Shown here: piece after piece, positions 6,631 to 29,640 of the stretch | Layout of the letters: each line of letters opens with the position of its first letter | Position numbering within the stretch: position 1 is the stretch's first letter | Source of the DNA: Candidatus Saccharimonadota bacterium | GTDB lineage: Bacteria; Patescibacteriota; Saccharimonadia; Saccharimonadales; UBA4665 | DNA: 32,000 nt | Assembly (NCBI GenBank): GCA_016699935.1 | Contig: CP064992.1 | Span: forward strand, 300,001 to 332,000 | Direction of reading: 5' to 3' | Made by a program: the position numbers and the translations under genes | Notes under the pieces: generated by a model | The model's database searches: none | What the model saw: the letters and a program-made list of their open reading frames with translations, nothing else | What the model was told of the DNA's origin: nothing

Positions 6631-7452
6631 CTATTGGGCATGGGCGGCTACGACGGCTGACCAAGCATCGATGCTCGGCTGATCGGTAAATCGCCACTGC
6701 TCCAGTACGTCGTTACTGCGGTTGCTCCACCAATACATCCAGCCAGCAAAGCCGTTGGCGACAAGCCACTGATGATCAGCTGCAATCACGCCCGGCCGAC
6801 CAGACTCGTCTACCGAAAGCAAATATCGTCCGTATTCTGTTATCCAGAGCGGTTTGCCCTTGCTCGCAACGAATGAATACCACGTTTGAAACTCAACAAG
6901 TTCAGTCAGTGGCTTAACAGCATTGACGCCGGTGTCAGTGCCTTTGCGATAGGTGTCGAAGCCGTACCAGTCGGCATTGGGCGGAATAAACGAACCGTCA
7001 GCCCCATTATTGCCAGGCCGATACTGAAAACCACCTGCGATCATACCAAACTGCACCGATGGTCGAGCTGCCTTGGCAGCGTTACGGTAACTCGTCCATT
7101 CACTAACAAATTGCGCACCTGTCGCATAATCGGCTTCGGGTTCATGATGAAATATAAACATTGGCGCATCACCACGCATGCTGTTGACGTAGCTAGCCAT
7201 ATTGCCACCAGCGTCATCTTTAAATGATGGTATCTCCAGCACGTCGCTGGGCGTAAAATATGACGCTGTCGCAGGTAATGTTTGCTCAAATGCACGCGTC
7301 GCCGCCAGTGGTCCAAACGTACTAACACCAGTCTGCCACTGCAAAGATAAGTTATTACTGTTTGGCTCATCGGGTCCTGGTTTACAACGTGCACCAACAT
7401 AAAAACGTGGTCTTGAAATTGCCCTTTGATGACGCCTGGCTGCTATGCTCAT
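6631..7452 (-). CDS. clan GH-A-like (TIM-barrel) glycoside hydrolase, paralog 1; no signal peptide
   Basis: Intact 273 aa. FHHEPE is a candidate acid/base in the position of the NEP motif, and WITEYG is a candidate nucleophile. N-terminus is MSIAARRHQRA. TATACT lies 7 nt before the ATG. Confidence 0.6.
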   Translation of the reverse strand: MSIAARRHQRAISRPRFYVGARCKPGPDEPNSNNLSLQWQTGVSTFGPLAATRAFEQTLPATASYFTPSDVLEIPSFKDDAGGNMASYVNSMRGDAPMFIFHHEPEADYATGAQFVSEWTSYRNAAKAARPSVQFGMIAGGFQYRPGNNGADGSFIPPNADWYGFDTYRKGTDTGVNAVKPLTELVEFQTWYSFVASKGKPLWITEYGRYLLSVDESGRPGVIAADHQWLVANGFAGWMYWWSNRSNDVLEQWRFTDQPSIDAWSAVVAAHAQ

Positions 7453-7488
7453 TGGCTCTAGTATACAACACAGGCGGAATTTATACGT

Positions 7489-9708
7489 TTAGTAAATCGG
7501 CGAACCGACTGTCGCACCGCGGCCGCTATCGCCGGTGTAAACATAGCCATCGAGACCGACAGCCAGTGTGCGGGTCGAAGAACAAGCCGCCGTGTAAAAC
7601 GCATCGCTTACCACGTCAAAGACTGGCACGGCCGCACGCGGGTCGAGACAGCGCCATAGCTTGCCCGAAAAATCATGTACAAACAACCAGCCTTCTGGGC
7701 TCATAGCGAGCGAACCGACGCTGACGCTCGTGAGTAGCGCTTCATCGACAGTTGTGCCAGTACCGGTGGTAGTATCGCCGTTGGTGATGCGGTAAAATGA
7801 TCCGTCGGTATTGCGAACATAAACGTAGGCTTGGTTAATCTTGTCGGCACAGACTGTATCCCAAGTAGCATATTCGGCATTGGCGGCGTGAATTTTGACC
7901 CACGTTAAACCAGCATTGTTGGAGCGCCATAAGCCCGTGCCACTATCGCCCTGAGCATAGACACGCGACCCGTACCACGAAAAGCTAGCGTTGTTGATAT
8001 TGGTAGCGCTAAATGGCCCACCAGTGATTTGCGTCCAGGTTGAGCCAGTTTTGCGCCACAGGCCACCAACTGCATTGCCACCACTACCAGCAATTGTGAC
8101 CAGTATGACGCGGTTGCCGCCGCTATCGCGTCCGACTGCCAGACCAGGTGCGTCGTTATAAACTGGCAGATTTTCGTCTACCCACGTACCGCCCGCATAG
8201 GGGTTAGTGTTACTTGCGATAGCACCGATGTTGTTATTGTTGTTCCGTGGGCTGGTGTTGAGAAAGAGCGTTGCATCTTGCGGATCATAAACCGCAACAT
8301 CGCCCTTGATATCACTTTCGCCAGCGGGAAAATCAGCCGGATGCTGCAAGACTGTCGTACCGTGATCTGTCGACGTTAAGCAAACATGGTCGCCATTTGA
8401 CCACGCAAGACGGCCTGCTACTAGCGGATCTGTGGCGACAGTTTTATTGACCGTCACCATCAGGCCATTATGAGCTGGCTGCCATGTCCAGGTACTTGTG
8501 AATGTGCCCATCCAAACACCACCGCGCCCAGCGACCACCAGTTGATCGGTTCTGTCAGGATCAACCACCAAATGTGCCGCACACCACTGCAAAGTTTGAG
8601 CGAAGTTTTGATACGTTTCATTGCGAAACCATGACAATACCGAAGTACCATAGACGGTATAATCGACAGTTGAATTGCCAGCGATCGAAATAGCCGTCCA
8701 GTTAGCACCACCATCGGTTGAGCGCATGATACCTTTTCGCCTTTTGGGCACAGTGTTATCTTGCACACCCTGTACAGCTCCAGCATATAGGATGATGTTT
8801 GCGCCTGATTTATATCCAGTAATCGACACCCATTTAGGTGTGCTCGATGCCGTGCCGGTATCGATACCATTGTTTAGATCCGTCCACGTGCCGCCACTAT
8901 AGCGAAATATACCAGAGTGATTACTTGCCGTGTAGAGACGTGTCGTGCCAGCATCATCCAGCGCGAACAATTCTTCAACATACTGGATTGTGCTCGAGGC
9001 AACAGTCGGCGGGTAGTCAGCCATTTTGGTAAACGTCATGGCGCCGCGCGCATTTGTGCTACGGTAAACACCACTAGTCGACGAGTTACCGTCGTCTGAC
9101 ACGGCCGCATATAAAATATCTGGATTGTTTGGGTCACTGGCAATACAACGTAACGATTTACCCGCTAATGCAGTTGAAGTAATCCACGATCCATTATCCC
9201 GTCGTTGAACACCTTGAGTGGCAGTTGCTACCCATAGGTATTTGGTTGCGCCACTATTGTCTTGCGCCAACATATTTCCGGTCGGGCGTGGCAATTCGAC
9301 ATTTTTCGAGTCGCCGGGCCATATCGGCACCATTGGCATCTTGGTCGTAATTGGCTGGCTCTGTTATGCCCGACCACGTCACTCCCCAGTTAGTACTGCG
9401 GTAGAGACCTTGGTCGGCCGCCGCAAAACATTCACCAGGCGTCGTGTCCGACCACATAACGGCTGCCATGTTTGACCCGACATTACCGACAGGCTGCCAC
9501 GTTTGGCCTTTGTCGACACTATAGTGCAGACCAGAAATATCAGCCGCCAGTATATACGGTCGCACACCTCCGTTTAAAAACGGGCTGATCGCGACGGCAT
9601 TTTGAAAGCCGCCGCCACCTATGCCTGAGCTCGCAAAGAATAACTCGTCGGTATTGAACCGGAAACTGAGTGATTAACGCGCATGAAACGTCGAGATGCA
9701 ATTCCCAT
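7489..9708 (-). CDS. BNR/Asp-box beta-propeller protein (sialidase/GH74-like fold), 2 frameshifts near the 5' end as assembled
   Basis: Asp-box repeats SVDKGQTW, RSTNWGVTW, RSTDGGANW and RSNNAGLTW. The 616-aa ORF (7489-9339) joins fragment 9254-9565 and a short ATG frame starting at 9708 (MGIASRRFMRVNHS...). TATACT lies 9 nt before that ATG. Confidence 0.65.
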
Positions 9709-9765
9709 ATGCTTTTAAGTATAGTCGATTGCTAAAACACAACCAATACGATTAAACCAAAAACA

Positions 9766-10804
9766 TTAAATGACAGGATTTTTTAACATCCGGGTCGACC
9801 AGTAGTCGATAGTTTCGGTTTCGGTCAGTTCCCAGTGTGCATAGCCCGAGTTGGTTACAGAACAATCGCTATTTGCATTCCAATAGTTGATCCAGGCAAA
9901 ATTGTTGGCCTGGCGGTAGTCAATTATATCCATGAGGGCATCTCGCCGCTCGAGCCCGTCAGAAATGTACCAAACACATTGGTATTGTTATTTTTGATAA
10001 CACCGTAGTTTTGCGCCATACCAAACTCTGGCACCACACCGGGCACACCAGCTAACTGCGACCATGCCGCGATTTCACCGCACAGCTCCTGACCTGTCAT
10101 TGGTGCTGTTTTACGCTCGTCCGTAAGCGTCCATGCCGACATAAAAACGATCGAATGTCTGGCCACCATGATAAGCTGGCCAATAATAATTGGAGTTCGT
10201 TACTCCACGCAGTGGGTAAAACAAACACTTCATGAGCGAACAATATTGTCCGTAGGGGCTCGATGCTCTTACTTGATCCATGGCGGTATAGACATCGCAG
10301 TAGTAGCTGGGCTGGGCCTCCTCAGGTACGCCAGATTGCCCGTCCCACTGCGGTTCTTGATAGTAGACTAGCACCCATGGCATAGAACGTGTGCCGAAGT
10401 AGTTAAGCGTTGTGTTGAGGTCGGCAATATCTTGGGTGGGATCAAGCTAGATTCCATACTTTGTGACACAATACCGGCCAGCGCGAGCCGGCACCATTGT
10501 TTTTGTATGAGTTAAGCGCCGTATTTATGCCACTACCATAATCAAAATACTTTATAAAACACGACGGTGAACTATTACCAAACCGAGACTGGTATACCAC
10601 TCGAGATGCGCCCGGTGTCGAAAACTGCTCCCACTGTGACTTATTGCCAGCCGTTACCAGCGTACTTGTACCGAGTAGCGCCAGCGAATCCAGCCCGGTG
10701 CTCCACTCCACTTTACTCCAATCGATACCGTTCGAGGCAATATCCCAGCCGACATAAAGCTGCGACTGGTAGGCTCTTTGCAACCTTCGCGCCGAAATGC
10801 TCAT
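9766..10804 (-). pseudogene. clan GH-A-like glycoside hydrolase, paralog 2, broken by about 3 frameshifts as assembled
   Basis: Fragments 10442-10804 (MSISARRLQRA...), 10111-10383 (VYYQEPQ, matching FHHEPE), 9924-10169 (VPEFGM, matching ITEYG), and an unlisted tail (DYRQANNFAWINYWNAN...). All are colinear with the 6631-7452 protein. Confidence 0.55.
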
Positions 10805-11180
10805 AGTAATCTAATTGTAGCATTTACACTCATGCTGATACTATTGATTACCTACTACAATTATAGGGGTTTGAGTTGTGAAAGCCTGAGCTTTGCTTCT
10901 ATGCGTCGCACCCGTTTGAGCAATGTTACTGGTTGGTGGTCATACCAATCTATCTTCAGAAAAAAGTTGCGCACAACTTCAAACCGTCATTCATAAGCTC
11001 AAAGCAACAACAAAAAACTTAATTTTGATGTAAAAATCAATCCTGTGATACCCGCAAACCAAACAAAATTTTCTAGACTATTTCATTTTATACACCAGCT
11101 GTGTTTCTCGGCTTGCAGGCTAATCTGTAAATCTTGTTTAAAAAACCAACTGTTGATTTATTGTGTTACTATTTTTAATT

Positions 11181-12182
11181 ATGGATAAACATTTCTTACC
11201 TAAGCTTAACAAAAACATAAAAAAACAACTGGTCCGCGCTAAGGTGCTTGTTTCAAAACATACTCGCCTATCAATTGCTTTAGCCGCATTTTTTTCCATA
11301 TTCTTTTTGGGTCTAGCGATATTTCTTACCAACAATAAAGCGTCCACAAATACAGCTAGCGGCACTTCAAAATTAACGTCTAGTAAAAGTAGCAGCTTAG
11401 CTTCAAATAATGACGAGAAGAAAAATACAGCATCAAGCACGGCAAATACTGCTCCTGCTGACACATCAAAGGCACCTCAGGGTAATAACCCTAGCACCAA
11501 ACCGACAGCTAGTTCGACGAAAGGCGCTTTGGTCGCCTCTCCCTCAAGCATAACGCTATCTTCAACAACCAACGGCGCAACCATATCTGTAAGAAGCAGC
11601 ACGGGTGACAATATTTTCTCGCCTATCGTCTCTAGTCTTCCTGGGTTGTCGGTCTACATATCATCTAATTATTCACTGAGCGGGACAGCCGATAAGCAGA
11701 CGTGGCAGATATCAGTTGACCGTATGGATTTCAACAGCAAAGGTCAAGACTACATAACAATCACAGACCGTGTTGGTCGTTTCGCAAGCACTAGAGTACT
11801 GGTTACATGGAATCCAGCGCCAACGTTTAATATCACCCAGGGATCCCTTGTACGAAGCGACGGAATTGACACCATAACTCATACCGCAAACTTCAGCATC
11901 GTGCCAAATAATCCATATTTTGGGAACCCTAACATGAATATTAGGCTATACGGTGGCCCATGTATCAATACTTCAGATTTAAGCCGCTCTTTCGTATACA
12001 ACGGACAAAACTCATTTAGCATACCCTGCGTGGTTAATCGGGTTGCAACTGGACCAGGGACGCTACCTCCACTGCCAAGTGCGACCACTTTCAATCTTGA
12101 TGTCTCTGGCACAGTAAATGGACAGTACATACGTGGAACCTATCCAGTCGTTTACACGCTGCCCTCTGGCTATGACCGCTGA
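11181..12182 (+). CDS. membrane-anchored surface protein with Ser/Thr/Asn-rich linker, function unknown
   Basis: ATG at 11181 (TACTAT 8 nt upstream). TM helix LSIALAAFFSIFFLGLAIFL, then about 90 aa of S/T/N/K-rich low complexity, then a globular C-terminal region of about 200 aa. Confidence 0.6.
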   Translation: MDKHFLPKLNKNIKKQLVRAKVLVSKHTRLSIALAAFFSIFFLGLAIFLTNNKASTNTASGTSKLTSSKSSSLASNNDEKKNTASSTANTAPADTSKAPQGNNPSTKPTASSTKGALVASPSSITLSSTTNGATISVRSSTGDNIFSPIVSSLPGLSVYISSNYSLSGTADKQTWQISVDRMDFNSKGQDYITITDRVGRFASTRVLVTWNPAPTFNITQGSLVRSDGIDTITHTANFSIVPNNPYFGNPNMNIRLYGGPCINTSDLSRSFVYNGQNSFSIPCVVNRVATGPGTLPPLPSATTFNLDVSGTVNGQYIRGTYPVVYTLPSGYDR

Positions 12183-12251
12183 GTGTTTGCAGAAATAGTC
12201 AACACACAAGCTTACCAAAAAGAACTAGACTTTCAATGAAGTTAAATCATT

Positions 12252-12279
12252 CCCTGTTATTCCCCCATCCCAAACAAAA
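12252..12279 (-). repeat. copy 1 of a recurring ~28-nt motif (minus sense TTTTGTTTGGGATGGGGGAATAACAGGG)
   Basis: Abuts the stop codon of the 12280 gene, between convergent genes. Shares the core TGGGAYRGGG..AATAACAGGG with copies at 13603 and 14267. Confidence 0.6.
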
Positions 12280-13049
12280 TTAGCGGATCGACAGAGCAAT
12301 GAGGATCATGGAGCCGTGGGAGAGAAATATGAAAGCGAGTTCGAAGAAAATATAGTGTCGTCGGTGCCGTGGACCAACGATGGCAATGGCTGCCATGACG
12401 GTAGCAATGATCCCTGCAACGATGGTATATTTTGGCAGAACAAGAGCAGACACAAGCGCCAACCCTAACATTGCAACTCCCATAGTGTACGCAAAAATAT
12501 TGTGCAGAATTTCTTCGAGTCCACCTCGAGGCAAAAACACACCAGCCACCATGCAGCATAGTACTGTTGTCATAATTAGAGTAATGATTATCCAGTTGTG
12601 AAGACGCGGTGCGACGAAAACCAAGCCCGTTAACCCAAACAAGATTGGGCACAGCCACATAAGTGTACGGTAGTAGTGTGCATTCGCATCTGAGCGCAAC
12701 GCGAGCTTGCTCCAGTTCAACTGGCGCAGATGGATTGTGTTCGCGCCACAAGAAATATGACCAACCAAAATATAGAAATCAAGGTTGCCACAAACACCAG
12801 CCAAAACGCCCAATTGTTCATGAGAATTACTATAGCAGAAACTTCAATGGCACTAGTCAGTAATAAAACCCAGGTAAAAACTTCCCCTGTTGTTTCCTCA
12901 TCCCAGGTGAACACACTATTATACCCTCTAGATTCGTTAGAGGAACTGTCCTCTAAAGCCCAATAACGTTCTGCTACCGTAAAATACTTGCTGATAGGTG
13001 TACACTTATAGGTGTTACGATAATTGGAGGTTTGTGCTATGGACGACAA
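12280..13049 (-). CDS. multi-pass membrane protein, function unknown; one frameshift as assembled; true start probably internal
   Basis: Fragments 12717-13049 and 12280-12813 are both strongly hydrophobic and colinear. The upstream end overlaps the RBS and start of the plus-strand gene at 13039, so a start near GTG 12914 is more plausible. Confidence 0.45.
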
Positions 13050-13533
13050 TAAAATCTTGAAGCTCGTGTATACATTTTCTTAGGTTTGTTGATAACATTT
13101 TTCATCGGCGTAGGTATAAACACCTTTTATGTACCGCCGAAAGAACCGGCTTATCTTAACGGGATTGTTACACACGACAAAACCTTAAATGATGAAGAAA
13201 TAAAAAGAACGTGAGTACGAAAAGCGTTATGAAGCATATGAAGAAAAATGAAACCATACAACCGAAATGTATCCATTATGACTTTGGCGGCTTCAGTCAC
13301 TTTACTCGTTGCTAGCCTTTGTCTACGAGAAGAAAATTAAAGTATTAACAGATGGTATTATGCTTGGAGGGCTATTCACGCTGATATACAGCATAGGCAG
13401 GGGTTTTGCCTCCCAGAACAGCAAATACGTGTTCATTGCTATCACTGTTGGTCTTGCCCTAGTTATTTATCTCGGTTACCGCAGATTCGCCCATGAAAAC
13501 CTTCCACCCAAAAAACACGCATCAGCCAAATAA
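13039..13533 (+). pseudogene. small two-TM membrane protein, broken by about 4 frameshifts as assembled
   Basis: GGAGG RBS plus ATG 13039 (MDDNKILKLVY...). Successive frames give IFLGLLITFFIGVGINTFYVPPKEPAYL..., EYEKRYEAYEEK, KPYNRNVSIMTLAASVTLLVAS and the listed ORF 13309-13533. Breaks lie at TTTT/AAAAA runs. Confidence 0.45.
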
Positions 13534-13602
13534 ACTTTACGCACTTAACTTTTTGGTTGTTTAGCAGAAAATCTTATAGGGGTCCGCCTTGGAAAAACCC
13601 GC

Positions 13603-13630
13603 CCCTGTTATTTCCCTATCCCAAGTTATA
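13603..13630 (-). repeat. copy 2 of the recurring ~28-nt motif (minus sense TATAACTTGGGATAGGGAAATAACAGGG)
   Basis: Lies between the convergent stops at 13533 (+) and 13677 (-). Confidence 0.55.
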
Positions 13631-13676
13631 TTACATGCCTGTTATCAGTTTGAGGCATGATCTATGATCACTCTGG

Positions 13677-14198
13677 TCAATTTGCTTCTGACTGGGCAGC
13701 TGCTGTTTCAACTTGCTGTATCAAACCTGCGCTCTGGTCTTTGCTGCTATCTAGGGCTTTGTACATACTACTTGGAAATAGCTTGCGCATCGATTCACCA
13801 TAGGCTGAGCCATCTTTTGGCATTTGGTGCGAAATGATAACAAAGTTCGGTTTTCTGTAAACTAATCTGACTGGTGAACTATACCCTTCACCCGTACCAT
13901 TTACCCCTTTAGAGTAGTCAGTATACCCTTGGCAATAAGCCCAACTGTAAGCATACTTTTCATCATAACCATAAAGTGTGTTTGCACAGTGGTAGTTATT
14001 GAAGCCTGGAGTACGTTGCGAAGCAAGCGATTCAAGATATATATTGATTGATTTACTGAGCTCTGCGTTTGGTGTTGTTACAACAATGCCTACGGGTTTA
14101 GCATACTTACTTTCTTCTGAACGCAGGAGTAAAAGCCACACACCTACACCAGTTATCACGACAGCTGACAGGCAACCCCATGCATATTTGCTCTTCAT
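13677..14198 (-). CDS. membrane-anchored or secreted protein, function unknown
   Basis: Intact 173 aa. N-terminal anchor CLSAVVITGVGVWLLLL followed by an aromatic-rich globular domain. Confidence 0.6.
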   Translation of the reverse strand: MKSKYAWGCLSAVVITGVGVWLLLLRSEESKYAKPVGIVVTTPNAELSKSINIYLESLASQRTPGFNNYHCANTLYGYDEKYAYSWAYCQGYTDYSKGVNGTGEGYSSPVRLVYRKPNFVIISHQMPKDGSAYGESMRKLFPSSMYKALDSSKDQSAGLIQQVETAAAQSEAN

Positions 14199-14266
14199 AT
14201 TGAATACTCTAGCATACGTGGCTTATAGCATCTACGTCAGGTAGCTCAAAATAATGAGGCGAACCA

Positions 14267-14293
14267 CCCTGTTATTCCCCGTCCCAGACAAAT
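14267..14293 (-). repeat. copy 3 of the recurring motif (minus sense ATTTGTCTGGGACGGGGAATAACAGGG)
   Basis: Lies 130 nt downstream of the 14426 stop and about 70 nt upstream of the 14198 start. Overlaps the end of a 25-aa minus ORF (14272-14349) ending FVWDGE*. Confidence 0.55.
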
Positions 14294-14425
14294 TGGCAAA
14301 ATTCCTGCTTAATAAGTTTGGCCTTTTTACTATTATTCCTGTTAGCCATCGGAACAACTTTTCACAGACTGGCTGTCAGGGAGTTTTGCCCTATACCATA
14401 CTTGAGCAAGTTAGCTGTTAGTAAC

Positions 14426-14668
14426 CTATTTTCCGTCATAACCGTGGCCGTATTTTTGGCGAAATTGCGTACGAAGTTGATCGTCGCTGCATGGGTACGC
14501 AAAAAACTGTTTACCAGCTGCAATATCAGCTTCGTATTGCGTTTGGCATGCTTCAACCAGCTTTTTATAACGCACCGCGTCATTTTCCGAGCTACGATTC
14601 CATGGGCGAACAAACATGATACCACCGACCGCCACAGCGAGTAGCACCGTAAGATACGCTTTATTCAT
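14426..14668 (-). CDS. small secreted or anchored protein, function unknown
   Basis: 80 aa with signal-like N-terminus MNKAYLTVLLAVAVGGIMFV. TAAAAT lies 6 nt before the ATG. The overlapping plus ORF 14318-14644 looks like a shadow ORF. Confidence 0.5.
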   Translation of the reverse strand: MNKAYLTVLLAVAVGGIMFVRPWNRSSENDAVRYKKLVEACQTQYEADIAAGKQFFAYPCSDDQLRTQFRQKYGHGYDGK

Positions 14669-14809
14669 AGACGTATTTTACCTTCTTATACGTGTTTGAA
14701 CAGCACCAAATCTCCGAAAACATTAACCGAGTGGAAGCATTAGGTTAATCGTCGTAAAAAAGATGGGGTAATGTGAAATTGGATTTTTCGTCTGGGGCTT
14801 ATCCATAAA

Positions 14810-14913: not shown

Positions 14914-16853
<1,940 letters not shown>

Positions 16854-16915: not shown

Positions 16916-16942
16916 TTAGCACTAAAACCTTCTGAGTGCTAA
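16916..16942. promoter_or_regulatory. CIRCE operator upstream of dnaK
   Basis: TTAGCACTA-N9-GAGTGCTAA. Confidence 0.85.
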
Positions 16943-16961
16943 CATACATTCATTAACCAAA

Positions 16962-16988
16962 TTGGCACTCCCATGTCAAGAGTGCCAA
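16962..16988. promoter_or_regulatory. second, variant CIRCE-like palindrome upstream of dnaK
   Basis: TTGGCACTC-N9-GAGTGCCAA. The A-to-G change is mirrored in both arms, so the palindrome is preserved. Lies 46 bp centre-to-centre from the first site. Confidence 0.6.
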
Positions 16989-17076: not shown

Positions 17077-18449
17077 TTAGGGCACCAGAGTCGAAAGCGT
17101 CACTTGTTTAACCCGCGCATTGCTGCCTTCAAAATACAGTTCAGGGCCTGTTATGCCACGGGTGGCGTTAGATCCGATAGTAACGTCTTGCGAGTCAACG
17201 ACCGAAACAGCATTAACTTGGGTATGCGTCGACTGTGTGTCTCCAAGGTTATTGCCTTCAACAACAACACCTAAGCAGCGATTGACAAGGACTCCGGCCT
17301 TGGCCCGTGTGACATTATCGTTTTGCCTGTTCTGATTATTATTGACTGAGACATTTCCAGCGACCGTAATTGATCGAGTGTCAACCGAGTTTGATGAACC
17401 AACACATACACCAACAGAGTCGCATTCGCGTATGTTATTGCCAGCTACTACGACATTGACGCACTGCTGAGAAACGGTAATACCGACATCGCCCGAACCA
17501 ATCACGGTGTTTCCCTGGACAATTACACCCACGGTACGATGAACTGAGATAGCATCGGCTGAACCTGGTGACACCGTATCTGCATTTCCCGTACCCATAC
17601 AAGTAACCTGATTGTGTGCAATAGTAATGCCGACATGCTTACTGGCATCGTCACCTAGCACCCGAATCGGTTGTCTTATTTGCGCCATGTCAGGAATCAT
17701 GGCGGGGGATTGATTAGCGAAACAACCAGCCGAGTTCTATGAGGTAAGATGTGATTACCCAAAATTCGCACATTTTCAGCATGATACGTATCCGTACCGT
17801 AAACATAAATCGCCATATCTTCCCAATTGCGGAAGACACAATCCTCTACGCTAGCACCCACCGTTGAGCGGTTAACCCTTAGTGCCACAGTTTGGCCGTC
17901 GAATTCACAATCCCGGATGGTAATATCTTTTACATTGTCACGAGTTTCAATTCCTTGAACCCTGTCACCTTCAGCAGCTCCATCGCAAGTTAGCCTAAGT
18001 CTCTCGAGGCGAACATTGGAAGAGTTAGGCGCAACCTCAAGCATGTATGACGTGATAGTTGCAGCAGTAGCTTGAAGTTGCAGGTCGCGAATTGATGCAG
18101 AAGCTGTAATCATCTTGGGGCGAGAGGTTGATATGGCGACGAGTTTTGCATTGTTTCCGAACAGCGGTGCAGTTACCGTCAGGAGTGATCCAAGCGCATA
18201 GGTCGCGGTGTGTAGCCAAACCTCACAGCCAGTTATGGTAGCGGCAGCTATAGCCGCCTGTAAGGCTGCCGTATCATCTGTAACTCCATCGCCCTTAGCT
18301 CCATAATCTCTGACGTTAATGACGCTAGTAGGTGCATTATTCCATTTTGCAGTTGTCGCGTTGTAGCTGAGAGTCTGCCCCTTACTCGGGTTAGAGAAAT
18401 AAACATCATTTGCGTTCTGTATACCCGTGCCTTGACCGGTGAATGGCAT
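17077..18449 (-). CDS. right-handed beta-helix protein, pectate-lyase-superfamily/tailspike-like (allele A); one frameshift as assembled
   Basis: N-terminus MPFTGQGTGIQNANDVYFSNPSKGQTLSYNATTAKWNN... then VINVRDYGAKGDGVTDDTAALQAAI (Pectate_lyase_3-type motif). Repetitive GN/VxG beta-helix rungs run through fragments 17697-18449 and 17077-17700. AGGAGA RBS; no signal peptide. Confidence 0.7.
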
Positions 18450-18612
18450 GTGTTTTGTCTCCTAACTAATGCTTGTGCTTAGTATAGCAAATCATGACTT
18501 ATGTGCACGATGTTCAGACCAGGCCTTACCAGTTGTCTAACAATTATTTGGTTGATTTCACGCGGACCATGGCGTGACGAATTACTTCGTTGCCTAGTTT
18601 GTAGCCGGATTG
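18246..18612 (-). repeat. 367-bp direct repeat, copy A (3 mismatches to copy B)
   Basis: Aligned by eye to 19881-20247. Covers the first 68 codons of the beta-helix gene, 94 bp of upstream region with -10 and RBS, and a 69-nt grpE 3' fragment. Confidence 0.9.
18544..18612 (-). pseudogene. orphan grpE 3' fragment (last 22 codons plus stop)
   Basis: Translates QSGYKLGNEVIRHAMVRVKSTK*, identical to the C-terminus of the grpE reading frame at 20179-20247. The two nucleotide differences are synonymous Arg codons. Confidence 0.85.
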
Positions 18613-18648
18613 CAAATTAGTCTTCACCTGTAATTTGGATGTTGTATA

Positions 18649-18770
18649 CCTGAGTCTCAAAACTGTCTCCATTTGTACTTGTGTCATTCCCGCAGAAGGC
18701 GGGAATCCATTTCATATATCTGGATCCCAGCCTTCGCTGGGATGACATCGTGGGGGTTTTGAGATTCAGG
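18649..18770. repeat. 122-bp MITE-like element with nested inverted repeats
   Basis: Outer inverted repeats CCTGAGTCTCAAAAC (18649-18663) and GTTTTGAGATTCAGG (18756-18770), 14/15 complementary. Inner perfect 8-bp hairpins ATTCCCGC-agaag-GCGGGAAT (18686-18706) and ATCCCAGC-cttc-GCTGGGAT (18724-18743), bracketed by TGTCAT/ATGACA. Confidence 0.7.
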
Positions 18771-20084
18771 TTTGTATTATTTGATGCCTCAGACGTTTGA
18801 TGGCATAGATGTATTTGTTGCTGCCCAAACTACACCCGTCACGTATGTTTCGTTTATTTGGTAGGCAGTTCCGCTCCTCAAACAAATTTATGCCTACACG
18901 GTGGAAGCCATAATTTGGATTACTAACACCTCCAAACATAGCTATGCCTCCATTTGTGTTTTGTTTACACTGATTACCGTCAATCATTGCCGATCGAGCT
19001 GAAATCCCTATTCCATAGTTCTTATTTGAGCGTAAAAGTTAGCAGAAATAACCATATTTGATGAGCATTGAATATTAATTCCATGAATATCATTTAAAAT
19101 GCACGTATTATTTGATACGGTTCCAAAGCACAATACATTGACACCTTCCTGGCCTTGAACCGTGGTGTCTATGGATATACCGTGGTCTACATTACTAATA
19201 CTAGTATTTGATGAAACTAACGGGTATAACTCAGCTGCAATCGTCGGACTACCGCCGCCAATGGTTATTCCCGATTGGCCATTGCCTTCACTCGTATTTC
19301 CAACAATCTGTGTATACTTGCCATACTGCGAGACTATACCGTGATTTACACAATTCCGTACTGTCGATCCAATAACTTTTGTGCCATAACTTCCAGACAG
19401 TATTACACCGTTCACGGTTCGTTCAACGAGACAGTTGCTTACTATCGATCCTCTGGTAGAATACAGCGCTATGCCTTGTGAATCGCAATCACTGACTGTC
19501 ACATTTTCTAGTACCGCCCTGCTATTTGGAACGCTGTCGACCGGCCGAGTGCCCAAAGAACCAACCCTCACACCTTGCTTATGCATGCCCGTAATCGTTG
19601 TGTCGCGTAAAACTGCCGTGCCCATCCAGCCATCGTCTGCATAGATTTCGATACCAGCAACTACTACACCTACAGATGTGTTTGTTTTATTTCCATCGAT
19701 TGTTAAGCCAGCAACTTCACACTGTCCCGATGACTTGATAATTGCAATTTCGGTTGAACCGTTTTTTAGTTTGATAGTTACATTGTAAGCACTAATGAAA
19801 CATCCCGTTATATCCAACGAGGAGCTGACTAGGTATGTTTGTGGGGGGAAATATACTGTTGCATTATCTAGCCGAGCATCAGCTATAGCCGCCTGTAAGG
19901 CTGCCGTATCATCTGTAACTCCATCGCCCTTAGCTCCATAATCTCTGACGTTAATGACGCTAGTAGGTGCATTATTCCATTTTGCAGTTGTCGCGTTGTA
20001 GCTGAGAGTCTGCCCCTTACTCGGGTTAGAGAAATAAACATCATTTGCGTTCTGTATACCCGTGCCTTGACCGGTGAATGGCAT
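18766..20084 (-). CDS. right-handed beta-helix protein, pectate-lyase-superfamily/tailspike-like (allele B); at least 1 frameshift, 3' end uncertain
   Basis: First 68 aa are identical to allele A, then a different beta-helix sequence (ORF 19008-20084). The frame continues after a TTTT run into ORF 18766-18987 (NYGIGISARSAMIDGNQCKQNTNGGIAMFGG...). Confidence 0.7.
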
Positions 20085-20247
20085 GTGTTTTGTCTCCTAA
20101 CTAATGCTTGTGCTTAGTATAGCAAATCATGACTTATGTGCACGATGTTCAGACCAGGCCTTACCAGTTGTCTAATAATTATTTGGTTGATTTCACACGG
20201 ACCATGGCGTGGCGAATTACTTCGTTGCCTAGTTTGTAGCCGGATTG
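19881..20247 (-). repeat. 367-bp direct repeat, copy B
   Basis: See copy A. This copy is contiguous with the full-length grpE. Confidence 0.9.
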
Positions 20248-20705
20248 TAGCTCTTCGCAGACAACCTCTTGGTCGCCATCACCCTCTTCCATACTGACTG
20301 CTTCGTGCAAATGAGGGTCAAACGCTTCACCCACAGTTTTGATGCGTTCGACGCCGATTTCTGCGAGGGTTTTTCGAACTGCAAGAGGATTTTCTTGACG
20401 CCCTCAACCCATTCAAGCAGATTTTTTTCCTCTTGACTCATGACTCTTGACTCATGACTCTCTGCCGCAGGAAGATGCTTGATGGCACGCTCAAAATTAT
20501 CGATGACAGGTAGCAGATCTTTGACCACGCTCGCCTTTACCGTTGAGCGCAGTGACGAGATTTGCTCATCATGCCGTCGGCGAATATTCATCGCATCTGC
20601 CCGCTCGCGCTGCAAAGCTTCAGTTAGCTGCGCATTCTCTGCCGCCAGCTGCTCGGCGATCTGTTTATAATCTAGTTTGTGGTCGGACTTTTTCTTTTCA
20701 GTCAT
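20179..20705 (-). CDS. grpE: nucleotide exchange factor GrpE; one frameshift as assembled
   Basis: ORF 20229-20705 is GrpE-like up to ...LEWVEGVKKILLQFEK. Adding one A to the A5 run at about 20377-20381 gives TLAEIGVERIKTVGEAFDPHLHEAVSMEEGDGDQEVVCEELQSGYKLGNEVIRHAMVRVKSTK*. The ATG directly abuts the hrcA stop. Confidence 0.85.
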
Positions 20706-21403
20706 TTACAGTACTTCCTCCAGGGTGCGGCCAGCGTGGGCGACTAGTGACATGACATCGCGGTAACTTTGGCGGGTCGGGCCAAGAGTACCTATGTAGC
20801 TATGATCGCTAAAAGGGCTGCGGAACCGACTAATGATTAGACTGACATCTGCGCTACGACCAATAGGGTTTTCGGCACCAATATAGACAGTCAAGGGCTG
20901 ATTTGGGGCAGCTTCACGTAACCACGGTTCGAGGTTATCAAGTAAAGACGCTACCTGTTGTACCTGCGCTCCGCCGTGAAATTCCGGCTGCCCAAAAGGT
21001 TTGATAGACCAGAAATGTATAGCTGATTACCGATGGTAGCAAGGCCGAGATTGTGTGTCAGCTCAACGAGCGTATCAACGGCGTTACGTATAGCACGCTC
21101 TGGCAAACCACCGTCTTGCAAGCGAGCGGCGAGAGCACGCTCACCACGTCGTTCTGGTGGAGTACTTTCTGTGTTGGCAATATCATTGACATAATAGCGA
21201 TAGCCTTTGTCAGTCGGTATACGCCCGGCACTTGTATGCGGCTGACGAATGTAACCCGAAGCTTCCAGTTCGGCCATTTCAGCACGGATAGTAGCACTGG
21301 ACACACCAAAAACCTTCGCAAGCAAGCTACTTCCGACGGGTGCGGCAACTTCGGCATACTGCTCAACGATTGCGGTTAGGATTTGCTTTTGCCTAGGAGT
21401 CAT
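20706..21403 (-). CDS. hrcA: heat-inducible transcription repressor HrcA (short form); one frameshift as assembled
   Basis: N-terminal winged-helix region [72 protein letters not shown]. One extra G in a GGG run joins fragments 20951-21403 and 20706-20894. Position upstream of grpE and the CIRCE sites support the call. Confidence 0.85.
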
Positions 21404-21421
21404 GACATAAATTATACCCGA

Positions 21422-21448
21422 CTGGCACTCAAAAGTCCAGAGTGCTAG
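21422..21448. promoter_or_regulatory. CIRCE-like operator upstream of hrcA
   Basis: CTGGCACTC-N9-GAGTGCTAG, adjacent to TATAAT (21411-21416), which sits 7 nt from the hrcA ATG. Confidence 0.7.
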
Positions 21449-23475: not shown

Positions 23476-25274
23476 TTAATCCCTCTTTAGCATGACGGTG
23501 AAGGCTTCGGCGGGGATGTCGACTTTGCCGAAGCGTTTCATGCGTTTTTTACCTTTAGCTTGTTTAGCGAGGACTTTCTTCTTGCGGGAAACATCGCCGC
23601 CGTATAAGCCAGTGGTGACATCTTTGCGGTAAGCGCTTAGATCCTCTCGGGCGATGAAACGACCATTTATGCCGGCCTGGATAGCGACCGGGACGTTCTG
23701 CCGCGGTATGACATCTTTGAGCTTTTCGACCGTTTCTCGGCCCAGTCGCTGTGCTTCGCTGCGGTGCACCATGACACTGAGGGCTCCAACCACTTCGCCT
23801 GCTACATAAAAATCAACCTTGACTAAGTCTTCGGCGCGGTAATCATCAAGCTCGTAGTTGAAGCTGCCGTAGCCAGATGTGACGCTTTTGAGCTGATCGT
23901 AAAAGTCTGTCAATAAATTAGCGAGAGGTGCTTGAAAGCTAACCATGGCTTGCTCGTCGATATAACTAAGATTGGTCTGTAAGCCACGTTTGCTACTGAT
24001 GAGTTGTATGACGGCACCGACATATTTTTGTGGCACCACTATCTCACCCTTAATCCACGGCTCGCGAATCTCAGCAATCTTGGTTACTTCTGGTAAGTCA
24101 GACGCTGATTTGATATCAATTTCTTCGCCGTTTATCAGGCTAACTTGATAGTCAGTACTGGGATTGGTTACGACGAGCTCAAGGTTATATTCTCTCTCAA
24201 GTCGCTCGCGGATAATATCCATATGTAGCAGCCCCAAAAAGCCAATTCTGACACCAAAACCCAAAACTGGTGAGTTTTCGGGTGCAAACTGCAAGGCCGA
24301 ATCGCTGAGCGAAAGCTTTTCGACAGCGTCTTTTAGCTCAAGATAAAACTCGTTACTTTCTGGAAAAAACCCGGCATACACGAAAGGCTGGACATTTCGA
24401 TAACCCGGCAGTGGCTGCTCGGCCGGTTGAGCGGCAGGGTAATTGTGTCACCTACCTTTGCTTCTCTAGTGCTCTTCAAATTGGTGACAATATAACCAAT
24501 TTCGCCAGTTTGTAGGGCTGTGCCCAGTGTCATATCGGGTTTTAGCGCTCCAACTTCCAGCGCAATACCAACCGCTCCCGTGGCTAGCATCTGTATTTGA
24601 GCTGATTTACCGATTTCGCCGTCAAAAACACGAACATAAAGAATTACGCCTCGATAATCATCGTAGTAACTATCGAAAATAAGCGCCCTGGTCTGCTCGC
24701 TAGATGTTTGGCCACGCCATGAACCGCCAATGTGTGGAGGAGGTATATCGGAAACAATTCTGTCTAGCACCGCCTCTACTCCCTGCCCTGTTTTGGCAGA
24801 AATATGCAGAATATCTTCCTGTTTGCAGCCCAAAAGGCTGATGATTTCTCGACTGACTTTTTCGACATCGGCAGCCGGTAGATCAATTTTGTTTAGAACC
24901 GGTATAATGTGCAGATTTGCCGCAATTGCTAAATAAACATTGGCGAGAGTTTGAGCTTGGATACCTTGGCTTGCGTCGACTACCAGTAGCGCACCCTCGC
25001 AGGCTTCGAGGCTACGTGATACTTCGTAGCTAAAGTCAACGTGCCCTGGAGTGTCAATGAGGTTAAGTTCATACCCTTTGTAATCCATCCTAACAGGCGC
25101 CAGTTTGATTGTTATACCCTTTTCTCTCTCCAAGTCCATCCTGTCGAGAATCTGCGCCTTCATGTTGCGTTTTTCGACGGTGCCAGTCAACTCGAGCAAG
25201 CGGTCAGCCAGTGTCGACTTACCGTGGTCTATATGCGCGATGATACAGAAGTTTCTTATGTGAGACTGATTCAT
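23476..25274 (-). CDS. lepA: translation elongation factor 4 (LepA); one frameshift as assembled
   Basis: [17 protein letters not shown] and NKIDLP GTPase motifs in fragment 24333-25274. The C-terminal fragment is 23476-24381. The shifted frame reads [25 protein letters not shown] across the junction. Confidence 0.95.
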
Positions 25275-25446: not shown

Positions 25447-27047
25447 TTAATACTCTATTTTGACTGGTTTCATCACGAAGCGCTTGACCGATGCAAAAAA
25501 TCCCCGTGCTTCGCTCAATCCAAACAGAGCCGAGACAACGAGGTGGGTCGTTATGGTCACTCCGGCAATCGCAGCCAGTTTATACAGCAAAACGAGCCCC
25601 TTATCTGCTGTCATAAGCGGCAAGAACTGGACCGCCACAAACCCCGCAACCAAACTAAATCCCGTTACGGAAATGATGCGAAATATACCACTCCAGAATT
25701 CTCCGTCAAACAACTTCCGGTCGCGTTTGAGCATTATCGCACCAAGTACAGCTACCTCCACGGCCGCCACAATAGACTGGGCTATGGCCAAACCAACGAC
25801 TCCGTAACTAGTTGGCCGAGATAGCTCATATGCCAAAATAACATTGAGGCCGATGACGAATACGGAGACTATCAGAGGTGTTCTGGTGTCTTTCTGTGCA
25901 TAGAACCACCGGGAGATTATGGCAAAAATGGTTCGAAAGAATATAGCTACACAGAGCGCGCCAAATATTATTGCAATGTCGCCACTCGTATTCCGAGAGA
26001 AAATGAGCCGCGCTAAATAGCCTCGCCCGAAAAAGCTCACAACAACAATTGGCAGAATTATCCATATAATAAGCCGGAGGGTACGCAAAAAATCCTGCCG
26101 AAACAAATCAGGCCTTCCCTGACTGAGCCGAGCGTTCAACTTTGGGAAAACTGCAGTAGATATGGCCGTGCCAATAAGCAGGATAGGTGCAGTATGCAGA
26201 ACATACGCGGTGTTATAATCTGCCACCGCTTTGGCCCCACCAAGAGCCTGACTGGAAGCAAGATTCGTTTCAACGATACTTTGTACCTGGTCGAGCCCTT
26301 GATCAAGCGAGCGAGGCGGCAGTTGACGCAGCATAGAACGAAAATCCTGTGAACGTTTTATCCTTGGAGTCCACCGAAACCCAAGACCCGAGACACCAAT
26401 AAGAATGACCAGTAACTGAAGTACGGCGCCAATAGCCGCGCCAATTGCAAGACCGACGATACCGATAGTATCCTTGAAAAGGTACAGGCTGACGATAATA
26501 CTTACGTTGTAGAAAATTGGCGCAGTTGCGTAAAAGAAAAACCTCCCAAATACCTGTTGAGTCGATGCGATAATGCCCGAAATAGTGAACAGCATGGGAT
26601 TGAGCGCCAGTATGCGCATCATGGTTGCAACATTATGGAGCTGTTCGGGGTGTAACCGTGGGCAAGCTTTCTAGCAAGCACGTCAGCGAAAATAAACATA
26701 AAGACACCGACAATCGCTAGGAATATTCCAAGAAAATTGATTAAGCTCGTTGAAAGCTCCCAAACCCCCGACGATCACCCTTTGCTAAACGATCATTCAG
26801 GTATGGCATAACGGCAACGCCAAGCGCTCCTGCCGCAATGATGAAGAAAAAAGAAGTCGGGAAGTACGAAAGCCGTAAAATAGACACCGGCATTTTGTGG
26901 GTCAGTTTTGGCAAGATCACCAAAGTTTGCGTTGACAAGCTTAGTCCGGAAAAAACCAAGCACTTGGGCGATAAGCGCAGCTCCCATGAGGAGCATAGTG
27001 GCATTGCCGAAGCTTATTCGTTTCCATTTGTGCGTGACTATTCGCAT
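25447..27047 (-). CDS. murJ: lipid II flippase MurJ (MviN family); at least 3 frameshifts as assembled
   Basis: A 391-aa polytopic fragment (25447-26622), plus upstream hydrophobic fragments (27047 MRIVTHKWKRISFGNATMLLMGAALIAQVLGFFRTKLVNANFG..., 26741-27004) and the unlisted frame WELSTSLINFLGIFLAIVGVFMF. The breaks between 26622 and 26760 fall at GGGGG/CCCC runs. Confidence 0.75.
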
Positions 27048-27088: not shown

Positions 27089-29640
27089 TACTTTAGATGA
27101 ACAACTTGCTCCTCAGATAGCACGCCATTATTCGTGTGGCCTGGTACTGTGGGAGGGGTAGGTGTCTTTTGCGCTTACGAACACGCTTGCGCTTTGTTTT
27201 TGCCGGCTCTTCTTCTGGCTCTCGCGGTGGAATCACCGTATTCGCGACGGTGGTAACTGTATCTTGCTTGGGAGGTTCAGGTTCTGTCCGCACCGTTTGA
27301 AGAGGTATCGTTACGACTGGCCGTGCATGAGGTACACACTTGGGAGGCTCCGTAAGCCCGTAGCGCTCTCCGATAAACCGTTCGACTGACTCCCTAGGCT
27401 GGGCATAGAGCGCGACTGTGGTCAATAATTTGCTGACTAAAATCAAACGGGAAGCCAGGCAGATTCAAGCTAATAGCCGAGAAGGCTTGAACTTTTTCTC
27501 CGCCTATTGTCATACTGACAGCAAAGTGACGGTTATGCATGTGTACCATGTCATGATCAGTAAACTTCGGTTCAAAATATTTCATCATTGTGCTAGCATC
27601 ATCCGCGCTCGTACGGAAACTGATGATTGATCCAACGTTGCCAAAAACCGCATCTCGTACTTCGGGAAGCATCTGTGCAATGTACTGGTTGGCGACTGTC
27701 AAGTTCAAGCCATATTTGCGTGCTTCACTCAGGATGGTTGCAAACGAATCAGTGGCAAAGTTCTGGAACTCATCGACATAGAGGTAGAACGGCGTACGCT
27801 GCTCGCCATGAATGTCAGCACGAGACATTGCTGCCATCTGCACTTTGGTGACAAGCAGGGCGCCAAGCAGGGCTGCGTTGTCCTCGCCGACGAGCCCGCG
27901 ACTGAGATTCACTATGAGGATTTTGCGCTCATCCATGATTTGCCGAATATTGAAGCTGCTTTTAGGCTGGCCGATGATATTCCGCACAAGCGGATTAGCC
28001 GTAAACGCACCGACTTTGTTGAGGATGGGTGCGACGGCTTCGGTCATGAATCTTTCATTCCAACTAGCAAATTCTATCGTCCAGAAATTGCGCACAACTG
28101 GGTCAGTGACGTACTGCAGTACATCAGTACGAAACTTTTTTTCGGTGAGCATGCGGGTGATATCGAGCATCGTCGCCTGCGGGTAGTCAAGCAAAGCGAG
28201 CAGACAGTAACGCAAAATATACTCGAGCCGTGGCCCCCAGCTGTATTCGAACATCCGCTTGATGACACCTATGAGTTCGGATGACGTATGCGTTTTCAGT
28301 TTGGGGTCATAGATTTCAAGCGGGTTAAAGCCCATCGGGAAATCCGTATCAGCGGGGTTGAAATATACCACATCAGCTGCTCGTTCAGATGGAATTCGCT
28401 TCAGAATATTTTGCGCATAATCGCCGTGCGGGTCAATCACGGCAAATCCGTAAGGGCTATATATGTCAGATATCGTGAGAAGCTCGAGCAGGCCAGATTT
28501 ACCCGTGCCAGTCTGGCCAATTATGTAGAGATGTCGCCCTCGGTCGGTCCGTGGCATGCCAAACATGGTATTGTGCCCGCGAAAATTTGTGGCAGCAAGG
28601 GGACTAAGTGTCTCCCCAGTAGCTGCTGATACCACCGGTAGATTGGCGGGCGGTTCTGCGGTTTGGCTGGTCGCCCACATAATATACGGCGTTTCTACAG
28701 TAGTATGTGGCAAGTGATACAGCGTCGCGACTTCTTCGATGTTGCACATAAATCCACTCTTATTGAAAGCTCGACTACGATAGTGTGCGGTAAGAAATGG
28801 GTCGTTGATAACACGCTTTGCCTCAAACCCATTCAGGTATGTGCTGTTGAACTGTTTATAGCTGGCAACAATCGACTGCATCTGAAGTTGCGCCTGCTGC
28901 TTGAGCGTATTACCACGGTAGACTATGCGAACTTGCGTTTCAAACGCGAGTTTCTGGGTTTTTTGCTCGGCCGCCCCAATTCGGGTTTGTTGGTCATCGG
29001 TCAATTTTCCGGTTTCCGCTTTTGTCTCAGGTGGCGCCCACAGCACACTAAGCAGACCTGTCGTCGTCATGCTTGACTGCCCTTTCATCTTGGCGACGTA
29101 ACGTTCACTTGCCCGATGCCAATTCTGGCTGGCTGGGCGTATGAGCAGTTGGAGCCAAGCTTCTTCGTCATCACTAAACTTTGCGAGCGTCGCCGTAATG
29201 GCTGCAAGCGGATCGACCTCAAAACTTTGGAATGTTTTTATAGGCAAAGCGTTGTTGGCTGTAAACCGTAGCTCAGTCACCAGCTGCGTTGCATACTGCT
29301 CCTCCGGATTGTGTGCCGCATAGTCTTCAACTTCAGTGATATGCACTGTCGGATACTGTGCGTAGATTTGCTCTTCAACATAACTAACCAGATATCGAGG
29401 CACCCACACATAAAACCCGATACGCTTACCACGCACCGCTATCTCAAAACTGAGCCGTTCGCGTTTGGCTGCTTTCAGGATACCTGGCGTTGGTATGGTC
29501 AGCAGCCCATGCAGGCTCGCAAACATCTGTTCGGCAGCCAGTTCCTTTTTATCGTTAGTGCGTGGCACCTGCAGGAGCAGTACCACCCCCGTATCGTCAT
29601 GCATTGGCTCTTCAGCCTTACCAAATATTTTTCCTGCCAT
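27089..29640 (-). CDS. soluble VirD4/TraD (type IV coupling protein)-like P-loop ATPase; 2 probable frameshifts in the 3' tail
   Basis: Walker A GQTGTGKSGLLELL, Walker B FYLYVDEFQNF, then NLTVANQYIAQM...VFGNVGSIISFR. An N-terminal domain of about 350 aa has no TM helix. The tail continues in other frames (ALYAQPRESVERFIGERYGL..., Pro/Lys/Arg-rich). Confidence 0.75.

Follow-up and report, generated by a model that had tools for sequence, protein, structure and literature searches.

A tandem of beta-helix genes with a duplicated grpE end in the variable grpE–dnaK interval of a Saccharibacteria genome

The closest described systems to the locus presented here, a tandem of two beta-helix genes (hereafter gene A and gene B) between grpE and dnaK of a Candidatus Saccharibacteria metagenome-assembled genome (1.23 Mb, a contig of 1,226,308 bp), are phage tailspikes, variable surface-glycan loci, the PfbA adhesins together with the A-modules of alginate C5-epimerases, and polymorphic-toxin loci. 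Throughout, the window is the whole 32-kb stretch of DNA that was analysed. The likeness to phage tailspikes (those of P22, Sf6 and Det7, the CBA120 tailspike proteins (TSPs), and the minor tail proteins of actinophages) lies in a beta-helix with a DYGAxGDG...TDDT cap motif, in a mosaic build with breakpoints just N-terminal of the helix cap or inside it, and in the body of B, which is 56% identical to a protein that ends a siphovirus-type tail module. Unlike tailspikes, A and B have no virion-binding domain and are not part of a phage, and their N-terminal module (hereafter the N-module) is 40 aa long and disordered in the model. Among variable surface-glycan loci, the pneumococcal cps locus lies between dexB and aliA and the O-antigen clusters lie between galF and gnd. 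The present locus resembles these in having highly conserved flanks (here grpE and dnaK) around variable content in a naturally competent group, and differs in that its cargo is one to few stand-alone proteins rather than a pathway and in that the homology lies partly inside the cargo gene. PfbA, which is sortase-anchored, and the epimerase A-modules are among the best Foldseek matches of the two proteins (probability 1.0, template-modelling score up to ~0.6), although sequence identity is 14–19% and neither catalytic nor binding residues are transferable. With polymorphic-toxin loci (Rhs, the orphan modules of contact-dependent inhibition, and the Vibrio arrays of type VI secretion system (T6SS) effectors; PMC5361080) the locus shares a conserved 5' homology anchor ahead of unalignable 3' bodies, what would be an incoming module placed upstream of the resident, a fragment of the neighbouring gene at the putative illegitimate joint, and differences between strains. 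It departs from them in that the displaced gene B keeps its full promoter, leader and N-terminus, so that it is no orphan, and in that the locus has neither an immunity gene nor a toxin domain, its proteins being putatively glycan-directed beta-helices.

Taken singly, the themes are already known, be it tailspike-like proteins of modular build, hotspots between core genes or scars of one-sided recombination; here they occur in a group for which host-interaction factors are scarce, and the literature search returned no papers tying Saccharibacteria to tail fibres or beta-helix proteins in this sense. As argued below, the grpE–dnaK interval is probably a recombination hotspot that carries exchangeable, phage-related and putatively glycan-targeting beta-helix proteins. 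Host choice and attack by ultrasmall epibionts are largely obscure, and the locus supplies concrete candidates.

Layout of the tandem and turnover of the grpE–dnaK interval

Both beta-helix genes lie on the minus strand, a point that the original prediction made from the sequence of this stretch did not give. In minus-strand order the locus reads hrcA, grpE, spacer, gene A, a palindrome, an orphan grpE 3' end, spacer, gene B, two CIRCE (controlling inverted repeat of chaperone expression) operators and dnaK, with the following features:

20179–20705, minus strand: grpE (Pfam GrpE, E = 3e-40, repaired frame)
19881–20247, minus strand: repeat copy R1, consisting of the grpE 3' end, the leader (20085–20178) and gene A codons 1–68
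18789–20084, minus strand: gene A, ~432 aa, the N-module (residues 1–40) followed by a PF12708/PF13229 right-handed beta-helix
18612–18613: junction at which the A-unit tail meets the orphan grpE fragment
18246–18612, minus strand: repeat copy R2, consisting of the orphan grpE fragment (18544–18612), the leader (18450–18543) and gene B codons 1–68
17077–18449, minus strand: gene B, 457 aa when repaired, the N-module followed by a beta-helix
14914–16829, minus strand: dnaK, split in the assembly by a frameshift

An ungapped comparison of R1 with R2 (367 nt each) gives 3 mismatches, at 20212 (C/T), 20197 (T/C) and 20176 (A/G), all of them inside the first 72 nt; no difference occurs over the 295 nt that follow, and the repeat search returned a 300-nt core within the two copies. 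The contents of the copies are alike, namely the 22 final grpE codons with the stop, a 94-nt leader and codons 1–68 of a beta-helix gene. In both copies the grpE codons end in ...SGYKLGNEVIRHAMVRVKSTK before the stop, and the real C-terminus of grpE is ...GYKLGNEVIRHAMVRVKSTK. Past codon 68 the bodies of A and B show no significant BLASTP similarity to each other (best E = 0.023). The repeat, its contents and the divergence after codon 68 are thus as originally described.

Frameshifts, to which the original prediction made no reference, break grpE, dnaK, hrcA and lepA as well as gene A and gene B. They lie at 20374 (grpE), ~19040 and ~18875 (gene A), 17708 (gene B) and ~16240 (dnaK), with further ones in hrcA (~20900–20950) and lepA (~24333–24381). 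Relative to L094, a short-read contig 96–97% identical to the window, the grpE frameshift is a 1-nt deletion in an A-run at ~20374 and the gene B frameshift is a 1-nt deletion in a C-run. The NCBI annotation of gene A stops at the first 358 aa (QQS18826.1, identical to the 358-aa open reading frame (ORF) seen here), and gene B is annotated as the fragments QQS18825.1 and QQS18824.1. Once repaired, both proteins align end to end with intact homologues. Gene B differs from its L094 counterpart by 31 synonymous and 7 nonsynonymous codons and is under purifying selection. Given that the deletions in grpE and gene B fall in homopolymers, that the alignments run end to end and that the ratio is 31:7, the frameshifts are most likely homopolymer errors of long-read assembly, and A and B are presumably functional genes.

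Two lineages illustrate the turnover of the insert. L094 has an intact grpE, the 94-nt spacer, an intact B and the sequence downstream of B, without gene A and without the duplication, which makes the A unit a presence/absence polymorphism. At the grpE 5' end (20535–20664) L094 and the window differ at 23 positions in ~130 nt, as against 8 in the next 655 nt, and this mosaic divergence points to frequent recombination between strains. In the second lineage, one and the same B-type gene, B' (99.6% identical between loci), is preceded by a glycoside hydrolase (GH)-like gene and then an A-type gene, A', in four loci (L103, L007, L105 and L106), by the GH-like gene alone in L107, and by a signal-anchored A-type gene in L104. 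Repeats of 75 nt (16 nt of leader and 59 nt of coding sequence), identical between A' and B', bound the A' unit, and L107 is the exact product expected of recombination between them.

The variability extends well beyond these lineages. We fetched 80 Saccharimonadales loci via GrpE, and the grpE–dnaK distance, which was measurable in ~70 of them, spans 15 to 7669 nt; in the closest species representative, whose GrpE is 82% identical, the gap measures 382 nt and contains no insert. The DnaK N-terminus is 84–98% identical across the locus set. Larger gaps hold varied genes, many of them coding for apparently secreted proteins (as judged from N-terminal sequences) and some for tail-fibre-like proteins. 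N-module genes with other bodies are found 3' of grpE in at least 4 further distinct sequence contexts. Such a gene begins 84 nt after grpE in L020 and L098/L100, with a TGCTACAAT box at the same position, 54 nt after grpE in L099 and 476 nt after it in L022, and an N-module gene also lies within the gap of L019. No homology was found between the GH-like neighbours of L007 and L019. The comparison of the interval across related genomes, which the original prediction had proposed, therefore shows turnover of copy number and alleles in two lineages (L094 and the B' lineage). Its further idea of a cassette-acquisition locus for glycan-targeting surface specificity holds with respect to variable content, as seen in the gap lengths, the N-module contexts and the B' lineage; surface specificity itself we only infer. 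Genes of the A/B type are gained, lost and swapped between strains, as expected of specificity determinants.

Fold, relatives and N-terminal module of the two proteins

Both proteins belong to the beta-helix families of Pfam, with scores for A of 70.8 bits to PF12708 (cut-off 27) and 70.7 bits to PF13229 (cut-off 25.9) and scores for B of 61 and 37.8 bits, respectively, both above the gathering thresholds. The PF12708 domain begins at residue 44. In the AlphaFold models (mean predicted local distance difference test (pLDDT) of 77.5 for B and 69.8 for A) a right-handed beta-helix of stacked three-strand coils runs from residue 43 to the C-terminal region, residues 60–73 forming the cap helix. 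Foldseek comparison with the PDB gave more than 100 matches at E ≤ 0.001, every one of them a beta-helix protein; the best are alginate C5-epimerases, the PfbA adhesin, the Det7, CBA120 TSP3 and Sf6 tailspikes, the phi29 appendage and the RbmB polysaccharide lyase. The sole match in PDB sequence searches with A and B is the DYGAKGDG...TDDT cap motif, and identity to characterised enzymes is 9–19%, too low for the transfer of catalytic sites. Codon 68, where the two genes part, lies inside the PF12708 cap helix, where the family's most conserved motif ends, and is no domain boundary. A breakpoint inside this motif suggests that its position was set by DNA homology rather than by a module junction, and codon 68 is a plausible spot for a homologous crossover.

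The relation to phage tail proteins is closest for B. It is 71% identical to P0001 and 66–68% identical to P0002, whose genes stand directly upstream of dnaK in other members of the Saccharimonadales. The 56%-identical match to its body named above is P0003 (603 aa), the last gene of the siphovirus-type tail module of contig L009 (68.7% GC), in which it accompanies genes for HK97 gp10-like, tail tube, chaperone, tape measure and distal tail proteins. In L009 the tail tube protein is 39–42% identical to Cutibacterium phage major tail proteins, with related proteins in Gordonia phages, and minor tail proteins of mycobacteriophages match residues 1–30 of P0003. P0005, a more distant relative (29–33% identical to B), belongs to a Kytococcus prophage, where giant tail genes flank it on one side and a lysin–holin cassette on the other. 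PHROG tail-spike profiles match the two proteins only from inner profile positions 61–300 on (~120–170 in profiles of 612–757 positions), the matches starting at protein residues 24–41; the part that anchors a phage protein to the virion is therefore missing, and A and B have only 40 aa ahead of the helix.

The search of 5.8 billion proteins returned no phage homologue for the body of A. Its homologue A' (434 aa) carries the N-module and has a body ~48–52% identical to that of A. A second protein, P0270 (466 aa), has a body ~84% identical to that of A' preceded by MSRKDFIMKVGVGAAVVTGLGAG, which by eye looks like a hydrophobic signal anchor or a Tat-like sequence. The position of the P0270 body behind such an N-terminus suggests that the A-type body works outside the cytoplasm. 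In L091 a signal-anchored A-type gene is directly preceded by a paralogue resembling B, 39% identical to B' (52–831 and 1113–2513), and in L095 the order is a 470-aa N-module gene, a GH-like gene and a signal-anchored A-type gene. From these two arrangements it appears that A-type and B-type bodies tend to travel together, differently arranged.

The N-module itself comprises ~40 conserved residues, MPF[TS]G[TS]GTGIQNA[ND]DVFFSG...L.YN..TAKWNN in copies from related loci, and the start pattern of the family is MPFTGTGTGIQNA..L.YN..TAKWNN. Its synonymous sites vary between lineages, so that the conservation is at the protein level. A word-indexed protein search with the 43-aa module alignment is unsuited to such short queries and returned 1 match; an exhaustive hidden Markov model profile search of 1.84 billion representative proteins was used instead and gave 449 clusters at E ≤ 0.001. 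Two forms of the module exist. In one form a single copy at residue 1 precedes a body of ~150–500 aa, which may be another beta-helix or a tail-fibre-like protein with ITEPKLA...QVLSWNG repeats; in the other the module is an internal unit of tail-fibre-like proteins, repeated up to 10 times, and one such protein has a Phage_tail_C domain. The module is not represented in Pfam, NCBIfam or the PDB (its PDB matches, at E ≥ 0.15, are those of chance), and the start pattern has no match in the 2.9 million viral contigs of IMG/VR. The family is thus a new one, present in neither Pfam nor NCBIfam.

N-module genes also occur at a second kind of locus, in which a 158-aa N-module gene stands beside other tail-fibre-like genes among housekeeping genes. 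At L096 (1237–4139) the tail-fibre-like gene has 342 aa (MARLP.PGGDDG.WG..LN) and is accompanied by N-module genes of 158 aa and 453 aa; L019 (4576–6024) has only a 320-aa tail-fibre-like gene and the 158-aa N-module gene, and L101 (10526–12759) has only N-module genes of 158 aa and 508 aa. The short-read contigs L001–L006 had seemed to end at a repeated N-module, which we reject, since an unrelated hairpin-containing sequence replaces codons 1–9 of a gene B'' there. The first 26–140 nt of these contigs contain a GAACCAAG...CTTGGTTC hairpin, and each of the six independent assemblies ends no more than 140 nt away; in all likelihood a repeated or mobile element has inserted at the start of B'' and the sequence is its edge.

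The beta-helix bodies of the original prediction are accordingly borne out by Pfam, AlphaFold and Foldseek, the kind of structural check that it had proposed. Its 68-codon adaptor is not, both because the conserved module measures ~40 aa, with the breakpoint inside the cap helix instead of at a module edge, and because the PHROG alignments speak against a virion-binding part. The likeness to tailspikes that it drew is upheld for the beta-helix bodies and for the homologues of B in phage and prophage tail modules, and fails for the missing phage anchor. Its statement that no phage genes lie nearby and that the proteins lack a signal peptide agrees with our results for the N-module forms and for the 10 neighbouring ORFs scanned, which contain no phage family; the flanks are hrcA–grpE and dnaK.

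Origin of the tandem and possible role of its proteins

The simplest model for the tandem would be homology-facilitated illegitimate recombination, a process that is documented in naturally competent bacteria and has been proposed for displaced T6SS/Rhs module arrays (PMC5361080, PMC3240628). The start state would be B alone after grpE, as in L094 today. An incoming fragment carrying grpE sequence, the leader, the first 68 codons, the A body and its tail would recombine homologously on one side, within grpE, the leader or the gene start, and its other end would be joined illegitimately 22 codons ahead of the grpE stop of the recipient. As a result intact B, its leader and 69 nt of grpE would be pushed downstream and the 367-nt direct repeats would be created. 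These repeats would in turn permit loss of the A unit by simple recombination, after which strains would differ in their cassettes.

Several observations are in line with such a course of events. The orphan grpE fragment implies that the segment now upstream of B was formerly contiguous with grpE, and B is taken as the original neighbour of grpE because of the L094 state, the orphan fragment beside B and the B-type variable sites in the shared codons. At the sites that distinguish A' from B', nt 59–132 of the shared codons match B' ~4 times as often as A', which is weak evidence since there is one A-type comparator only. Four sites (20248, which lies 1 nt outside the repeat, and 20212, 20197 and 20176) carry the L094 allele in 3 of 4 cases in the orphan copy and in 1 of 4 in the copy attached to grpE; a uniform clock running since the duplication would place the four changes in this way with P ~0.002 by our own arithmetic. 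This distribution suggests that the grpE end may be derived from the donor. The flanks of the junction at 18612/18613 are without similarity, which points to an illegitimate joint, and the position of the homologous crossover is not locatable. With the L094 state and the B-type shared codons in its favour, the history given originally, in which the downstream gene once abutted grpE and a second allele was then placed ahead of it, is supported. On this model the locus would offer a clean natural case of one-sided homologous recombination with a dated scar, the orphan grpE end.

Regarding the role of the two proteins, cultivated Saccharibacteria are naturally competent epibionts of Actinobacteria and can be manipulated through natural transformation (PMC10633639). 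A and B may bind or cleave polysaccharide of the actinobacterial host surface, in which case the set of cassettes could aid host recognition or access; we propose this role because tail proteins of actinobacterial phages and prophages have the body of B in common with it and because the body of A is found elsewhere behind an apparent signal anchor. A more far-reaching reading, which is rather unlikely and is put forward tentatively, is that Saccharibacteria have domesticated receptor-binding depolymerases of phages that infect their actinobacterial hosts, fused them to a lineage-specific 40-aa N-terminal module for export or display independent of a signal peptide, and kept them as cassettes exchanged by transformation at hotspots such as grpE–dnaK. 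If that were true, the cassette set would decide which hosts an epibiont recognises or feeds on.

A number of points weigh against the hotspot of phage-related, glycan-targeting proteins and its proposed history. The phage link consists of one metagenomic phage element (contigs L009 and L010) and one prophage, and B-type bodies were found neither in cultured phages (INPHARED, with P0001 as query) nor in IMG/VR (with P0003 and the B-family alignment as queries). Among 5.8 billion proteins, only two clusters are homologous to the A body. The B body has a GC content of 48.7%, equal to that of the genome, so that any transfer would be old and its direction is not readable. No catalytic residues were identified in A or B, and PfbA-type adhesins and epimerases have the same fold. 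The N-module is predicted to be disordered (pLDDT ~30 for residues 1–40 in the AlphaFold models of both proteins), and its forms come without a signal peptide and without a known export route. As for the history, a donor strain with A alone was not found, the junctions are known from the assembly alone, and L094 might just as well have lost gene A in a later pop-out between R1 and R2, which leaves the direction of the event unfixed; with both repeats present, such pop-outs are likely.

The last of these points leads to a purely internal history, in which the 5' region of an old A–B tandem, of the kind seen in L007 and L103, was homogenised by ectopic conversion or by unequal exchange between sister chromosomes that carried the grpE 3' end along, with no foreign donor and with L094 as a later pop-out. 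The A'–B' tandem of the other lineage with its 75 nt of identical 5' ends, the existence of L107 as the expected product of recombination between those repeats, and the perfect identity of 295 nt, as under continuing conversion, all speak for it. Three features fit less well. The A and A' bodies are ~48–52% identical as opposed to 71% for B and B', which is better explained by separate acquisitions; conversion requires homology at both ends, whereas the orphan-grpE junction has none; and all 4 differences fall in or next to the first 72 nt with the orphan copy being L094-like, for which a donor-derived grpE end is a better fit than drift. We regard the internal history as rather unlikely. That the tandem was produced by the assembler is highly improbable. 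A long-read metagenome assembler could have concatenated co-existing strain alleles grpE-A and grpE-B, and both the error-prone assembly, with its frameshifts in grpE, dnaK, hrcA and lepA, and the existence of a strain with B only (L094) lend this some credit. Typical long reads comfortably exceed a 367-nt repeat, however, and the two sides of 18612/18613 share no similarity that would mislead an overlap assembler. In addition, the tail of A does not continue into sequence from upstream of dnaK as it would in an A-only allele, and tandem N-module pairs have been assembled independently from short reads in several samples.

The remaining alternatives concern what the proteins do. It is conceivable that the frameshifts are real and that A and B are functionless pseudogenes left from the tail fibre set of a former prophage, as their 3 frameshifts, their separately annotated NCBI fragments and their similarity to phage tail proteins might lead one to expect. 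This is very unlikely, since the frameshifts of grpE and gene B each amount to one base lost from a homopolymer and affect essential genes at an equal rate, B is intact in L094 with the 31:7 ratio given above, the scanned neighbour ORFs contain no phage genes and the N-module start pattern is absent from viral contigs. If the genes are functional, they might still act on the cell itself, working in the cytoplasm or on its own envelope as epimerases or hydrolases of the wall or capsule, so that their variability would reflect change of the self-surface, for instance in evasion of phages. The alginate C5-epimerases among the top structural matches, the lack of a signal peptide in the N-module forms and the GH-like genes that adjoin in related loci (recognised by eye from motifs, with no family match) are consistent with this, whereas the sharing of the B body with tail proteins of phages that infect another phylum and target actinobacterial surfaces, and the occurrence of the A body behind an export-type anchor, argue against it; we judge self-directed action to be unlikely. 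Were the proteins ordinary self-directed enzymes, the finding would shrink to a well-documented recombination hotspot.

Control elements, the palindrome and the remaining window

The elements that may control the heat-shock genes and the two beta-helix genes, together with the palindrome, are listed below.

21422–21448: CIRCE-like operator before hrcA, with 3 mismatches to TTAGCACTC-N9-GAGTGCTAA and a chance expectation of 0
20110–20124, minus strand: TGCTATACT, extended -10-like box in the gene A leader, by sequence match only
18648–18771: palindromic element of 124 nt with two inner hairpins just past the gene A stop, similar to a miniature inverted-repeat transposable element (MITE)
18475–18489, minus strand: second copy of the TGCTATACT box in the gene B leader, a sequence match
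16916–16942 and 16962–16988: two CIRCE operators before dnaK, the pair being conserved in L011 and L014
6597–6623: CIRCE-like operator before dnaJ

The operator before hrcA implies that hrcA–grpE is a heat-shock unit of its own and the pair before dnaK that dnaK has its own regulated start, so that, with four CIRCE-like operators, the heat-shock genes fall into three units, each under separate control, and accessory DNA lies between these. The operator scan shows no CIRCE ahead of gene A or gene B, and scans for sigma-70 promoters and terminators gave no canonical promoter or terminator for either. Both identical leaders have an AGGAGA ribosome-binding site, and a box similar to theirs precedes the N-module genes of L020, L022 and L019 at a comparable distance. 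There is no small gene 3' of gene B before the CIRCE sites that could correspond to an immunity gene.

The palindromic element has 16-nt terminal inverted repeats that are 94% complementary, and its predicted fold is very stable (z = -6.1). It is present in a single copy in the window and absent from the 101 loci searched, and the dispersed copies of a MITE were thus not found in this set; no Rfam family matched anywhere in the window. The hairpin after gene A may act as a transcriptional barrier.

In the remainder of the window, the short degenerate direct repeats at 15068–15324 encode the Glu/Lys/Ala-rich C-terminal tail of DnaK and are low-complexity coding sequence, not a separate element. 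Between dnaK and dnaJ, a stretch of ~8 kb (~6631–14700) holds ORFs of 616, 273, 339, 177, 173 and 120 aa without a Pfam match and may represent a second variable island within the heat-shock gene set. On the other side, a 748-aa protein with coupling-protein domains of the VirD4/TraG type (type IV secretion) is encoded at 27394–29640, near FtsH (29748–31616) and MurJ (25447–26622).

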